From positions 31,696 through 95,695 of the forward strand of contig CAZHUO010000001.1 of the NCBI GenBank assembly GCA_964535715.1: 64,000 bases of DNA, in the 5' to 3' direction. How positions within the stretch are numbered: the first letter of the stretch is position 1; every line of letters begins with the position of its first letter. Made by a program: the position numbers and the translations under genes. The notes under the pieces are model-generated. The model had not been told where the DNA came from. It did not search any database and saw only the letters and a program-made list of their open reading frames with translations. The DNA is from an uncultured Gammaproteobacteria bacterium. GTDB taxonomy: Bacteria; Patescibacteriota; Patescibacteriia; Buchananbacterales; UBA6539. Below, in pieces: positions 23,488-24,596 of this stretch.

Positions 23488-23577
23488 GGAGAGGTGCCGG
23501 AGTGGTCGAACGGGGCACACTGCTAACGTGTTGTCCGGTAAAACGGACCGTGGGTTCGAATCCCACCCTCTCCGCCA
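23488..23577 (+). tRNA. tRNA-Ser (anticodon GCU), type II with long variable arm. CCA is encoded.
   Basis: GGAGAGG acceptor stem pairing with CCTCTCC. D-arm GCCGGAGTGGTCGAACGGGGC. Anticodon loop cuGCUaa. Long extra arm TGTCCGGTAAAACGGACCG. T-arm GGGTTCGAATCCCAC. Confidence 0.8.
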
Positions 23578-23963
23578 GACTACGCTCCTCACTTTGTTCG
23601 GAGCTTCGTCTGACAGGCTAGATAATATCAACATAGCGCGCTTAATAAATAATTTTTGCGCTATGTACTATGTTTATTTTTTGAAAAGTAAGAAAGCAGA
23701 AAATTGGATATATACAGGTTCAACAGTTAATTTAAAAAAAAGATTTTTAGATCACAGTTTAGGAAAATCATTATCGACAAAACCATATTTACCAGTTTAT
23801 TTAGCAGCTTATATAGCAGTTAAAACAGAAAGAAAGGCAAGAGATTTAGAAAAATATTTTAAGGCTGGGTCAGGCAAAGCAATATTAAAAAAAAGAATTT
23901 TAACTAACGAAGTGTAAAAGTAATCAGTTTTAAGCGACGAAGCCCTTTAAAGGGCGTAGTCGC
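23578..23963 (+). mobile_element. 386-bp GIY-YIG mini-element, copy 1, bounded by 8-bp terminal inverted repeats and inserted directly at the tRNA-Ser 3' end
   Basis: Begins gactacgc right after the tRNA CCA and ends gcgtagtc(gc). Carries the atcaacatagcgcgc motif and a GIY-YIG ORF. It is followed by a 17-nt duplicate of the tRNA 3' end. Confidence 0.6.
23663..23917 (+). CDS. GIY-YIG nuclease-domain protein (84 aa) carried by mini-element copy 1
   Basis: MYYVYFLKSKKAENWIYTGSTVNLKKRFLDH is a GIY-YIG family signature (YxYxLxS...WIYTGST.NL..R...H). Confidence 0.75.
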   Translation: MYYVYFLKSKKAENWIYTGSTVNLKKRFLDHSLGKSLSTKPYLPVYLAAYIAVKTERKARDLEKYFKAGSGKAILKKRILTNEV

Positions 23964-23980
23964 TCCCACCCTCTCCGCCA
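23964..23980 (+). repeat. Duplicated tRNA-Ser 3' end (tcccaccctctccgcca), att-like junction between the two element copies
   Basis: Exact 17-nt copy of tRNA positions 23561-23577. A degenerate third copy (atccaccctctc) lies at 24549-24560. Confidence 0.8.
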
Positions 23981-24065
23981 GACTACGCTCCTCACTTTGT
24001 TCGGAGCTTCGTCTGACAGGCTAGATAATATCAACATAGCGCGCTTAATAAATAATTTTTGCGCT

Positions 24066-24499
24066 ATGTACTATGTTTATTTTTTGAAAAGTAAGAAAGC
24101 AGAAAATTGGATATATACAGGTTCAACAGTTAATTTAAAAAAAAGATTTTTAGATCACAGTTTAGGAAAATCATTATCGACAAAACCATATTTACCAGTT
24201 TATTGGCGACGTAGGGCGAGAGAAACAAAAAGTAAACAACTTTTGTTTCCGAGCCGAGGAGCCATCAAAGGGTCAATACCCGAAAGCGCTCCGTCGCCAA
24301 AGCTTTAATTATTCAGCTTTGGAGCGTCGGCGACTTGCTGCGGAAGAAGTGGGCGGAGCTTGCTCCGCGGTTTAATACCCTTTATTTAGCAGCTTATATA
24401 GCAGTTAAAACAGAAAGAAAGGCAAGAGATTTAGAAAAATATTTTAAGGCTGGGTCAGGCAAAGCAATATTAAAAAAAAGAATTTTAACTAACGAAGTG
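24066..24499 (+). pseudogene. GIY-YIG gene, copy 2, disrupted by MITE-like insertion after codon ~46
   Basis: The reading frame is identical to 23663..23917 up to ...KPYLPVY. It then runs into the insert (182 bp including the duplication, not a multiple of 3). Confidence 0.6.
24205..24380 (+). mobile_element. MITE-like structured repeat, copy b, with 6-bp TTTATT target duplication
   Basis: Empty site in copy 1 is ccagTTTATTtagcagc. Filled site in copy 2 is ccagTTTATT[ggcgacgtagggcgag...ggtttaataccc]TTTATTtagcagc. Internal stems ggcgacg/cgtcgcc, gaaacaaaa/ttttgtttc and gcggagc/gctccgc. Confidence 0.75.
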
Positions 24500-24596
24500 T
24501 AAACGTAATCAGTTTTAAGCGACGAAGCCCTTTAAAGGGCGTAGTCGCATCCACCCTCTCAATTTGAATATATATAAAAATAAATAAAATAAATTT

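Follow-up and report, generated by a model that had tools for sequence, protein, structure and literature searches.

Tandem GIY-YIG mini-elements beside a tRNA-Ser gene point to a family of integrase-free elements at tRNA 3' ends

The tRNA-Ser(GCU) locus described here probably holds two tandem copies of an autonomous, integrase-free mini-element specific for tRNA 3' ends, which would move by a mechanism proposed by analogy with other nucleases. On our best reading, this element belongs to a large family, unreported as such, whose members insert at the very 3' terminus of tRNA genes, in the great majority of cases those for tRNA-Ser. Judged by the comparison of homologous loci, the arrangement is a family trait and not a local oddity. 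Our literature search on GIY-YIG and Ssn nucleases in a tRNA context found no earlier description.

The locus lies in the window, that is, the whole 64-kb stretch of DNA that was analysed, and is made up of the following features.

23488-23577, + strand: tRNA-Ser(GCU), the target gene (ARAGORN; Rfam tRNA 52.7 bits)
23561-23577, + strand: first copy of the repeated tRNA end, the last 17 nt of tRNA-Ser(GCU), tRNA positions 60-76 (repeat analysis)
23574-23614, + strand: left hairpin module of unit 1, GCCAGAC-TACGC-(inner stem-loop)-GCTTC-GTCTGAC
23578-23963, + strand: unit copy 1, 386 bp, intact, adjoining tRNA-Ser(GCU)
23631-23666, + strand: hairpin CATAGCGCGC...GCGCTATG, burying the ATG start codon at 23663-23665 (DNA fold -9.2 kcal/mol, z -2.6)
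23663-23917, + strand: GIY-YIG nuclease gene, 84 aa, single domain (Pfam PF01541)
23932-23965, - strand: right hairpin module of unit 1, GAGCGAC-TACGC-cctttaaagg-GCTTC-GTCGCTT (fold -11.8 kcal/mol, z -3.5)
23964-23980, + strand: second 17-nt tRNA 3'-end copy, exact (positions 60-76), abutting the right hairpin of unit 1
23977-24017 (+ strand) and 24517-24550 (- strand): hairpins of unit copy 2
23981-24548 (23981-24204 plus 24387-24548), + strand: unit copy 2, its GIY-YIG ORF split by a MITE
24205-24386, + strand: MITE-like repeat of 176 nt (24205-24380) with duplicated target TTTATT (24199-24204 and 24381-24386)
24549-24561, + strand: third tRNA 3'-end copy, decayed, ATCCACCCTCTCA

The order given by the first-pass annotation, namely tRNA-Ser(GCU), a unit of 386 bp, an exact 17-nt repeat of the tRNA end, a second unit and a degenerate third end, was reproduced in full and at the same positions by ARAGORN and repeat analysis. 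The 17-nt tRNA end TCCCACCCTCTCCGCCA and the 386-bp unit together form a 403-bp direct repeat (copy 1 at 23561-23963, copy 2 from 23964), and a single substitution (23919, A versus C) distinguishes the two 386-bp units. The window contains the 17-mer exactly twice, against a chance expectation of 0.05 even with three mismatches allowed. The tRNA stays intact, as its 3' end (positions 60 to 74/76) is repeated over 15-17 nt on the far side of each unit. Precise excision would leave tRNA-Ser directly joined to aatttgaatatat. The insertion of a MITE into copy 2, also part of that annotation, is borne out by the 176-nt repeat and its duplicated TTTATT; the target site is uninterrupted in copy 1, where it reads cagtttatttagcag, and a second copy of the repeat, likewise between TTTATT copies, lies at 38823-39035. 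Because the MITE splits its ORF, the gene of copy 2 is a pseudogene; the intact copy is thus the one adjacent to the tRNA, and the outer copy is inactivated.

Homologous loci were collected from 80 species (80 loci, at least eight phyla), with hosts in Patescibacteria, Ignavibacteria, Bacteroidota, Marinimicrobia, Alphaproteobacteria, Lentisphaeria and others. A tRNA-Ser gene lies just upstream on the same strand in 65 of the 80 loci, within 400 nt in 61 of these, and four further loci follow tRNAs for Lys, Asp, Glu or Val, bringing the loci placed just 3' of a tRNA to 69; among the 11 loci with no tRNA, eight are cut off by a contig end. In 43 of these 69 loci, compared with 2 of 207 control regions, the gene is followed by 12 nt or more that exactly repeat the 3' end of the local tRNA. 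This copy matches each host's own tRNA, reading TCTCGCCC... in L002 and L018 and TCCCGCCC... in L009 and L019. These results support the earlier proposal of a very small, integrase-free GIY-YIG element that uses a tRNA 3' end as its attachment site: the unit is found well beyond this locus, beside tRNA genes in at least eight phyla, and its relatives carry repeats of their own tRNA ends. In public data the family extends to ~1,900 clusters (50% identity) at E <= 1e-10 and ~10,900 at E <= 1e-3.

In 39 of 42 loci the tRNA-end copy has its left edge, which abuts the right hairpin, at tRNA position 60-62; the right edge lies anywhere from position 73 to beyond 100. Because of this variable right edge, and because ORF-less units exist that are separated by CGCCA alone, a staggered cut of fixed length (17 bp) was rejected as the sole source of the repeat. 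Such ORF-less units, which consist of a left and a right hairpin, form tandem arrays in L066 and L088; full units occur in tandem in L049, and leftovers of earlier copies were detected in L089 and L031. The alphaproteobacterial subfamily has both hairpin types upstream of the ORF, and a downstream tRNA-end copy was not found there.

Both ends of each unit carry one and the same conserved module, an imperfect hairpin of ~30-40 nt in which two 7-bp arms enclose TACGC, an inner stem-loop and GCTTC, in this order. The two modules are in inverted orientation, the left one being on the + strand and the right one on the - strand. The 8-bp terminal inverted repeats gactacgc/gcgtagtc that were noted at first are real, although they represent merely the outer part of this module. 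Its TACGC/GCTTC core is fixed, with two constant mismatches, and the 7-bp arms covary. The 80 family loci contain 177 modules versus 3.0 in shuffled sequence, the arms are paired at 91.2% versus 70.9% in shuffles, and 124 cells changed on both sides versus 36.9 expected, with 0 of 500 shuffles reaching the observed value of either arm statistic. By itself, the left hairpin has no unusual fold stability (z -0.9). Its stem begins inside the tRNA, the first 4 nt of the arm being the tRNA's G73-C74-C75-A76, and where the discriminator base of the tRNA is A73 (L074 Lys, L084 Glu) the outermost arm pair alone breaks, which shows that the first bases of the left arm come from the target. Since one module lies on opposite strands at the two ends, it is read as DNA. 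An identity of the hairpins as RNA elements or terminators was rejected on account of these opposite strands and the lack of T-tails, no T-runs having been found after the hairpins in the promoter/terminator scan. Inverted repeats equivalent to the hairpin over the start codon are found at the same place in L002 and L009.

The 84-aa product matches PF01541 with 40.3 bits (cut-off 22.6; E 4e-10) over residues 1-70, in agreement with its initial description as a GIY-YIG protein, and Y5, Y17, R27 and E63 are invariant, and H31 nearly so, across 29 aligned family sequences. As a bare GIY-YIG domain belonging to the Slx1/UPF0213 clade, it is almost wholly catalytic and has no separate DNA-binding domain. 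Its AF2 model has a pLDDT of 92.9, with low confidence in the last 10 residues; the top PDB matches of the model are GIY-YIG domains, the nearest solved structures being UPF0213 1ZG2, At-HIGLE and Slx1, and the predicted fold is closest to Slx1/UPF0213 (family profile versus 1ZG2 E 7e-8; Slx1 TM ~0.65-0.70), not to I-TevI. Slx1, which cuts branched and stem-loop DNA, differs by an added RING domain and its partner Slx4. UPF0213 proteins (YhbQ, BH0048) are, together with Slx1, the nearest to our protein in both structure and sequence, and we know of no mobile-element context for them. The NCBIfam search with the 84-aa protein returned no specific family (TIGR01453, for group I intron endonucleases, scored 16 bits against a cut-off of 56), and tblastn against the plasmid and phage collections gave no match, so the family is unseen in those sets. 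An exact look-up of the window's protein found nothing on record, and the 99%-identical protein P0001 stood in for it in record look-ups.

In known GIY-YIG homing enzymes, which measure ~220-250 aa, DNA binding is the task of a separate domain, and the bare 84-aa catalytic domain leaves no room for such sequence recognition. This weighs against an explanation by classical homing, in which the unit would be a free-standing endonuclease gene comparable to T4 SegB. Its product would itself recognise an empty tRNA-Ser gene and cut it on both strands, and the element would be copied in by recombinational repair, with the tRNA-end copy as a portable right homology arm. The shared catalytic domain fits such a gene, and the tRNA gene is the sole sequence conserved between hosts, so that an element-borne copy of its end would solve the homology problem; in L022, moreover, the downstream copy matches the tRNA of the relative L025 and not its own. 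However, inverted hairpin ends with target bases in the stem and ORF-less tandem units of hairpins alone would be unexplained, as would a structure close to Slx1/UPF0213 and away from I-TevI. SegB, for its part, is a GIY-YIG homing enzyme in a tRNA cluster (PMC2330249). It is encoded within a group of tRNA genes and promotes its own inheritance. SegB and I-TevI differ from our element in having DNA-binding domains, in making double-stranded cuts, in lacking hairpin ends and a target repeat and in moving between collinear phage genomes. We regard classical homing as improbable; the nearest published relatives are the Ssn nucleases rather than classical double-strand-break homing enzymes.

Ssn nucleases are single-domain GIY-YIG proteins of ~85-95 aa distributed across phyla (Chenal et al., Nat Commun 2025, PMC11893778; CDD cd10448). 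Their genes are flanked on both sides by hairpin-forming NTS/SRM repeats, which are also found without the gene, and the enzyme cuts single-stranded DNA only, beside its hairpin, even when the stem is made of two separate strands; the authors remark that this layout of a gene between hairpins looks like an insertion sequence (PMC11893778). The family described here likewise has a single-domain GIY-YIG gene between hairpins, has gene-free repeats and spans many phyla, and the protein, at 84 aa with the domain model over residues 1-70, lies within the single-domain size limit for Ssn (<= 150 aa). The hairpins, in contrast, are of a different motif, with covarying 7-bp arms and the TACGC/GCTTC core: the published SRM pattern, in a form that does match the published NTS consensus, had 0 sites in the window and one in 295 kb of the 80 family loci, and a canonical NTS-like site lies 333 nt upstream at the ortholog locus L068. 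The location at a tRNA 3' end, the tRNA-end repeat and the target bases in the stem are undescribed for Ssn, and the word 'tRNA' is nowhere in that paper (PMC11893778).

Related genomes bear on whether the unit moves at all. The search for an unoccupied tRNA-Ser locus that had been suggested at the outset was successful in L098, a related species with the same gene order, which has an empty site (ComF, tRNA-Ser, 27 nt, DUF5673). The sister strain L107, at 98-99% nucleotide identity, has one unit versus two in the window and shares the decayed outer tRNA-end copy, there as ATCCACCCTCTCCA, so this third copy is older than the duplication. These observations can be set against a reading of the unit as an old resident, in which the second copy arose by unequal crossing-over or slippage between tRNA-end repeats and the family is now essentially immobile and vertically inherited. 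In line with such residence, three Buchananbacteria-like species (protein identity 73-75%) have the element at this same tRNA-Ser(GCU) site, the direct repeats on both sides of a unit promote tandem amplification, and only 1 nt separates the two copies; in addition, protein-tree clades track host phylum and often tRNA-Ser isoacceptor, and the Marinimicrobia locus is stable, with an identical protein at one fixed position in 24 of 24 contigs read. If the tRNA end had recombined with the decayed outer copy (common core CCACCCTCTC), however, the middle copy should start AT (ATCCACC...), whereas in the window it is a perfect 17-mer starting TC. Moreover, the downstream copy tracks each host's own T-stem, which neutral decay from one ancient insertion would not produce, and the syntenic empty site, the occupation of four tRNA-Ser isoacceptors plus four other tRNAs and the ORF-less derivatives all argue against immobility. 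We therefore consider local duplication of a resident element unlikely.

Nonetheless, the clades that follow their hosts, the fixed Marinimicrobia locus and the identity of only 74% between two family copies within one genome point to a history of largely vertical residence with infrequent movement; mobility appears episodic, since several lineages keep the element as a stable, vertically inherited resident. Identical proteins in several contexts were sought as a sign of recent jumps: P0047 was found at a single locus, and for P0110 the upstream 260 nt and a tRNA-Gly are identical in all contigs, with the difference beginning after the tRNA. Because the P0110 contexts differ only from that point, they are no clear proof of a recent jump.

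Reiterated tRNA 3' ends and tandem arrays are also the classic signature of integrases, and the unit could be a satellite unable to move by itself and mobilised in trans by a tyrosine integrase that targets tRNA-Ser, with the array formed, as in CIMEs, by tandem accretion at the attachment site. A phage-like island of > 10 kb in L107 indeed ends at the same tRNA end, exactly at ...GTAGC-CCGCCA-GACTACGC, but it has CCGCCA alone in common with that end and lacks the 17-mer. As first noted, the 386-bp unit contains no integrase, and a scan of the 10 ORFs that reach 150 aa within ~10 kb on each side gave none either. T-loop-type tRNA integrases are said, in work attributed to Williams in 2002, to exchange strands in the T-loop, whereas the repeat here starts after it (position 60-62), so that the T-loop is absent from the repeat. 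The GIY-YIG gene and its specific hairpins also travel together across at least eight phyla, unexpected for passive cargo of unrelated integrases. The unit thus resembles tRNA-integrating islands, prophages and CIMEs in its insertion at a tRNA 3' end, in keeping the tRNA intact, in tRNA-end direct repeats and in tandem accretion, and departs from them in its 386 bp, in the start of the repeat, in its hairpin inverted repeats, in having its own nuclease and in the lack of any integrase found, and we judge movement by an integrase in trans to be highly improbable.

The module may alternatively have been domesticated to the benefit of the host, for instance as a co-transcribed processing or termination structure at the tRNA locus, or as an occupant or guard of the attachment site against integrating phages. 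Long vertical residence with catalytic residues kept would suit such a role, and the Ssn authors propose domestication in Neisseria (PMC11893778). The promoter/terminator scan detected no separate promoter for the GIY-YIG ORF, which may therefore be transcribed from the tRNA promoter. Conversely, the distribution is patchy and a syntenic relative has an empty site, one copy in the window is inactivated, tandem and ORF-less copies exist, and the placement of the module on opposite strands argues against an RNA element; an Rfam scan of 23000-25400 at E <= 1 returned two tRNAs and chance-level matches alone, with the hairpins and the MITE unmatched. A domesticated function accordingly strikes us as very improbable.

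For an autonomous tRNA-end-specific element, the following course of insertion can be put forward. By analogy with Ssn, the 84-aa enzyme would recognise the hairpins folded in DNA that is single-stranded while it is replicated, transcribed or taken up, and would then nick the junctions between element and tRNA end. Pairing of the left hairpin's right arm (GNN-TGGC), which the element encodes, with the tRNA's terminal GCCA and the element's first bases would align the target 3' end with the element 5' end, and the tRNA-end copy at the right end would provide the second junction. GIY-YIG enzymes hydrolyse DNA, and its rejoining is beyond them, so putative host polymerase and ligase would be needed to complete the insertion. 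New insertions would settle beside the functional tRNA and push older copies outward, giving rise to tandem arrays.

Several traits of this course recall the IS200/IS605 and REP/RAYT systems (HUH Y1), which are very small, have imperfect end hairpins, insert 3' of a specific short target, act on single-stranded DNA and have hairpin-only derivatives; hairpins and a fixed target, the tRNA 3' end, are present here too. In those systems an element guide pairs with flanking target bases and helps define the cleavage site, to which the pairing of the left arm with the tRNA GCCA is comparable. The HUH Y1 transposase (TnpA) is, however, absent from the unit, whose sole ORF encodes the GIY-YIG enzyme, and a hydrolytic nuclease in place of an HUH tyrosine transposase means that there would be no covalent intermediate for rejoining. 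In addition, the hairpins here are inverted on opposite strands where those of IS200/IS605 lie on one strand, and a 15-17-nt target repeat flanks the unit where IS200/IS605 makes no target duplication. It is possible, if rather doubtful, that the units are autonomous integrase-free transposons on single-stranded DNA and a new mechanistic class, in which a bare Ssn-type GIY-YIG nuclease recognises hairpin ends, the target is chosen by DNA-DNA pairing (arm with GCCA, and tRNA-end copy with tRNA gene), host ligase and polymerase finish the reaction and target choice could be reprogrammed via arm and repeat.

If our reading is right, small single-domain GIY-YIG genes of this family would be site-specific mobile elements homing to tRNA 3' ends with no integrase or transposase of a known class. 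They would offer a biological rationale for the Ssn single-strand nucleases, whose authors only speculated on an insertion-sequence-like origin, and would account for numerous stray tRNA 3' fragments and for assembly breaks beside tRNA-Ser in metagenome-assembled genomes. With ~390 bp and 84 aa, the system would be very compact, and its target recognition, maybe in part by DNA base-pairing, would be relevant to genome-insertion tools.

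Directly behind the CCA of tRNA-Ser(GCU), the unit sequence gactacgc... begins, and a repeat finder detected a period of 403 bp, in which the final 17 nt of the tRNA are joined to the 386-bp unit. The two tandem units, the exact 17-nt tRNA-end copy between them and the degenerate third tRNA-end fragment of the first-pass annotation were all recovered, alongside two further tRNA genes in the window.

Features of the tRNA-Ser locus and other tRNA genes in the window
23488-23577: tRNA-Ser(GCU) (ARAGORN)
23561-23577: first 17-nt tRNA end, TCCCACCCTCTCCGCCA
23574-23614, + strand: left hairpin module of unit 1
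23578-23963: unit copy 1, 386 bp
23663-23917: 84-aa ORF of copy 1 (Pfam GIY-YIG, E 4e-10)
23932-23965, - strand: right hairpin module of unit 1
From 23964: second repeat copy, 17-nt tRNA end first
23977-24017 and 24517-24550: left and right hairpin modules of unit 2
24205-24386: 182-nt insertion in copy 2
24549-24561: decayed tRNA-end fragment ATCCACCCTCTCA behind copy 2
25138-25212: tRNA-Arg(GCG) (ARAGORN)
62303-62375: tRNA-Gly (ARAGORN)

The 17-mer occurs exactly twice in 64 kb, where 0.05 occurrences are expected by chance even with 3 mismatches, and with the insertion set aside the two copies differ by a single base (23919, A versus C). The GIY-YIG ORF is split in copy 2, where the proposed MITE hit was borne out: the insertion core is a 176-nt repeat (24205-24380) with another copy at 38823-39035, TTTATT lies on both sides of each, and the empty site is visible in the uninterrupted copy 1 as cagtttatttagcag. 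The common 6-bp flanks suggest either target-specific insertion with duplication or that TTTATT is carried by the element. This structured repeat of 176-213 nt starts with GGCGACGTAGGGCGAG, ends with GGTTTAATACCC and lacks terminal inverted repeats; the copy at 38823 has ~37 nt extra inside, and the copy at 24205 had no match in Rfam. Other repeats in the window (15618-16079, 31403-31620 and 38017-38465) include ~114-170-nt intergenic repeats containing TTGTCATCCTGAATTCATT, an 87-nt tandem repeat within a - strand ORF, and 42/84-nt periodic repeats within a gene. Upstream of tRNA-Ser (23323-23483), a GTTAACTGTTAATTG-like motif is found 3-4 times at ~30-50 nt spacing, partly as inverted repeats, possibly serving the tRNA gene as a promoter or regulatory array. 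The ATG of the GIY-YIG gene sits in the stem of an inverted repeat, CATAGCGCGC...GCGCTATG (23631-23666), also present at two homologous loci (L002, ~3966-4003; L009, ~3966-4005), which may serve translational control or be another DNA-level site; neither a Shine-Dalgarno sequence nor a promoter was detected for the gene.

The AlphaFold model of the 84-aa protein is confident (pLDDT 92.9) and has a beta-beta-alpha-beta-alpha-alpha topology. By sequence profile the closest solved protein is UPF0213 BH0048 (1ZG2, E 7e-8), with weak similarity to Slx1 and I-TevI, while the closest by fold are 1ZG2, the plant Slx1 homologue HIGLE and Slx1-Slx4 (TM 0.63-0.70). Residues Y5, Y17, R27 and E63 are invariant in the family, H31 is nearly so, and there is no space for a DNA-binding domain. 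Classical homing by the nuclease is thus disfavoured, both because the protein lacks a recognition domain and because hairpin-only derivatives of the unit exist.

The window protein has 114 database homologues (43-99% identity) in Patescibacteria, Ignavibacteria, Bacteroidota, Marinimicrobia and others, and a profile search of 1.84 billion cluster representatives returned 1,897 clusters at E <= 1e-10 and 10,909 at E <= 1e-3. Taking one genome per species, we surveyed 80 loci in 80 species, so that the unit extends well beyond this locus. A same-strand upstream tRNA-Ser gene (GCT, TGA, GGA or CGA anticodon) was found at 65 of them, 61 times within 400 nt, and four loci lie behind tRNA-Lys, Asp, Glu or Val; of the remaining 11, eight end at a contig edge no more than 265 nt from the gene. 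The repeats are likewise present in relatives: at 43/69 loci, 12 nt or more of the local tRNA 3' end are repeated exactly within ~250 nt past the stop codon, compared with 2/207 equal-sized control regions. The left edge of this copy falls at tRNA position 60-62 and abuts the right hairpin directly in 39/42 loci, which defines the far junction of the element, while the position of the right edge varies (73/74, 76 or far beyond), with frequent continuation into another left hairpin or unit. An alphaproteobacterial clade has both hairpin types between tRNA and ORF, and no downstream tRNA-end copy was seen there. More distant GIY-YIG subfamilies (~45% identity; L106 257-600, L120 143-620, L112-L119) are likewise tRNA-linked. 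One lies behind tRNA-Arg(GCG), with a hairpin stem again beginning at GCCA; another sits between tRNA-Arg and tRNA-Ser, where a ~60-nt repeat brackets the segment made up of the ORF and tRNA-Ser. In the type of homologue P0110, the ORF is upstream of tRNA-Gly(GCC), its stop codon is within the 5' end of the tRNA, 12 nt of which (GCGGGTGTAGCT) are repeated ~150 nt upstream of the ORF.

The 8-bp terminal inverted repeats of the first-pass annotation are real and inverted at the unit ends, but they belong to imperfect hairpin modules rather than being plain repeats. Each unit end consists of a 7-bp outer arm, TACGC, a variable inner stem-loop, GCTTC and a matching 7-bp arm. In the window, GACGAAGC-N-GCGTAGTC is found at four places, which are the left (- strand) and right (+ strand) ends of the two units. 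A loose module pattern gave 177 hits over the 80 loci and the window, with 69 different left arms, versus 3.0 in shuffled sequence; the last base of the 5' core covaries with the first base of the 3' core (C-G 119, T-A 53, others 5). For 65 distinct instances picked by the two cores and a 4-nt loop only, leaving the arms unconstrained, arm pairing reached 91.2% of cells versus 70.9% in column shuffles, and both-side changes numbered 124 cells versus 36.9 expected (0/500 shuffles as high); sliding the partner columns reduced pairing to 16-41%. Two core positions, T·C and C·T, are constant mismatches. Since the module is found in the same orientation on the top strand (left end) and the bottom strand (right end), it constitutes a genuine terminal inverted repeat that is read as DNA, and not an RNA motif.

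The left arm, GCCAGAC in the window, starts within the tRNA, its first four bases being G73-C74-C75-A76. Across loci the left arm always begins with the last bases of the tRNA, as GCCA-NNC where CCA is encoded and GC-NNNNC where it is not, and the right arm compensates. Behind tRNAs with an A73 discriminator (L074, Lys; L084, Glu) the ...TGGC end of the right arm is retained and only the outermost pair is broken, which shows that the first bases of the left arm are target-derived, completing the stem, and that the right arm is element-borne. A third arm copy lies 1-3 nt (usually AG or NGG) past the left hairpin, as in GTCTGGC-AG-GCCAGA (L018-L097; window 23615-23622), so that the right arm could pair with either neighbour; copies of at least 5 nt accompany 30% of left modules versus 2.6% of right ones, making this a left-end feature. 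In most loci the ORF end overlaps the right hairpin, with (T/S)-D-E-A-(L-A) and TAG encoded by ...GACGAAGC-loop-GCGTAG.... The hairpin itself encodes the last 5-7 codons in most members (L018-L097), the TAG stop lying inside GCGTAGTC, and the conserved C-terminal peptide may therefore mirror a DNA rather than a protein constraint. In the window, the ORF end has a degenerate inner hairpin (23902-23929) and a separate outer hairpin.

Two Buchananbacteria-like species (75% and 73% protein identity) share the window's order of ComF-like gene, tRNA-Ser(GCU), unit, DUF5673 gene and tRNA-Arg, and both carry a copy of their own tRNA end behind the unit. An unoccupied locus, as sought by the first-pass annotation, was found in the syntenic metagenome contig L098 (DUF5673 protein 64% identical), where a ComF-like gene and tRNA-Ser(GCU) are followed after 27 nt by the DUF5673 gene and then tRNA-Arg, with neither hairpin nor GIY-YIG gene. 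This empty site and the decayed copies disfavour a domesticated tRNA-linked module. The sister-strain contig SRR29243451_43663 (L001/L107), 97.8-99.2% identical to the window over the common part, has one unit only, which at 23919 carries the base of copy 2, and it shares the decayed outer tRNA-end copy; the duplication in the window is therefore later than the strain split. Local duplication may be the origin of that step itself. As an account of the whole locus, an old resident unit duplicated locally is disfavoured: had the tRNA end and the decayed copy crossed over unequally, the middle junction should read ...GTCGC/ATCCACC..., whereas the middle 17-mer matches the tRNA end perfectly and has the canonical junction GTAGTCGC/TCCC; in addition, repeat and tRNA co-vary across species, the T-stem differing between three genomes (TCTCGCCCTCTCCGCCA in L002, TCCCGCCCTCTCCG in L009 and TCCCACCCTCTCCGCCA in the window). 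Tandem or partial copies also occur elsewhere, with two units in L049, remnants of earlier copies in L089 and L031, and a second truncated unit in L002/L018. ORF-less units are seen in L066 and L088, with three tandem ~80-nt units (left hairpin, spacer, right hairpin, CGCCA), and L030, L075 and L085 hold hairpin arrays. More than one tRNA-Ser gene can be occupied per genome (L051 and L063, for example), and many contigs stop right beside the GIY-YIG gene, fitting repeats.

No integrase was detected near the unit. The stretch 12000-36000 holds 20 ORFs of 150 aa or more; the outer 10 were scanned (MetK, a TraG-like ATPase, RadA, MPG glycosylase and M48 peptidase among them) and none was a recombinase; nor was any of the four ORFs adjoining the unit (ComF-like gene, GIY-YIG gene, DUF5673, RecG). 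Mobilisation as a satellite by an integrase is disfavoured by this result and by the unvarying association of the nuclease with the hairpins across phyla. In L107, a phage-like island of >10 kb (1-9909; ParB-methylase, PDDEXK/RNase H-like, DUF3644), absent from the 64-kb window, ends exactly at the tRNA-end/unit junction (...GAGTAGC/CCGCCA/GACTACGC); a large element thus also makes use of this tRNA-Ser 3' end, with which it has only CCGCCA in common.

Ssn proteins are single-domain GIY-YIG proteins of ~94 aa (CDD cd10448) whose genes have hairpin repeats on both sides, termed NTS in Neisseria and SRM generally (Chenal et al. 2025, PMC11893778). They bind and cut single-stranded DNA only, cleaving just one strand, a few nt to the 5' side of the hairpin, and cleavage persists with a stem built from two separate strands; the NTS-ssnA-NTS layout was called identical to an insertion sequence and likened to IS200/IS605 and REP/RAYT (PMC11893778). 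A small GIY-YIG gene between hairpins, possibly insertion-sequence-like, is thus of a general kind already published in 2025. The word tRNA, however, is absent from that paper, and our full-text literature search found no paper tying GIY-YIG/Ssn genes to bacterial tRNA genes; modules of this kind specifically at tRNA gene ends form a large cross-phylum family, a feature unreported in the literature searched. The published SRM pattern, coded and confirmed to match the NTS consensus, matched nowhere in the window and once across 295 kb of family loci. The single match, in a proteobacterial MAG (L068, 1668-1695, - strand), reads CGTCATTCCCGCGTAAGCGGGGATCCAG, an almost perfect NTS of the Neisseria type, and is situated 333 nt upstream of the family member there.

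Inserted at the tRNA 3' end, the element leaves the tRNA intact and is bounded by inverted DNA hairpins. By analogy with Ssn, we infer that the 84-aa enzyme is an Ssn-type nuclease which, on single-stranded DNA, recognises its own hairpins in folded form and nicks next to them. With the module inverted at the two ends, cuts 5' of it would hit the 5' terminus of each element strand, predicted on the left in the tRNA-end copy (top strand) and on the right in the complement of the downstream tRNA-end copy (bottom strand). The right arm (GNN-TGGC) could then act as a built-in splint, pairing with the element's first bases and the terminal GCCA of the tRNA gene strand and setting the target 3'-OH beside the element 5'-phosphate for host ligase; the right-end tRNA-end copy would anneal to the other strand of the tRNA gene to give the second junction, and replication would fix the insertion. 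Such a model would account for the repeated tRNA end, its sharp 5' and unsharp 3' edge, the specificity for tRNA-Ser genes, which have the acceptor strand CTCTCCG in common, and tandem arrays with the youngest copy beside the tRNA. Target duplication through cuts staggered by 15-17 nt would leave the same pattern in the sequence.

The mobile-element reading is tempered by long vertically inherited residence of the family, as indicated by an identical protein at the same locus in 24/24 Marinimicrobia contigs read (of 186 index blocks), a neighbour-joining tree in which proteins cluster by host phylum and often by isoacceptor, and the two copies of one Cytophagales genome, just 74% identical over the gene. 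The arrangement in the alphaproteobacterial clade tempers it as well. Overall, the finding is real and its first interpretation essentially right: the locus family supplies the missing evidence that hairpin/GIY-YIG modules behave as site-specific insertions, and suggests target choice based on base pairing as a testable mode.
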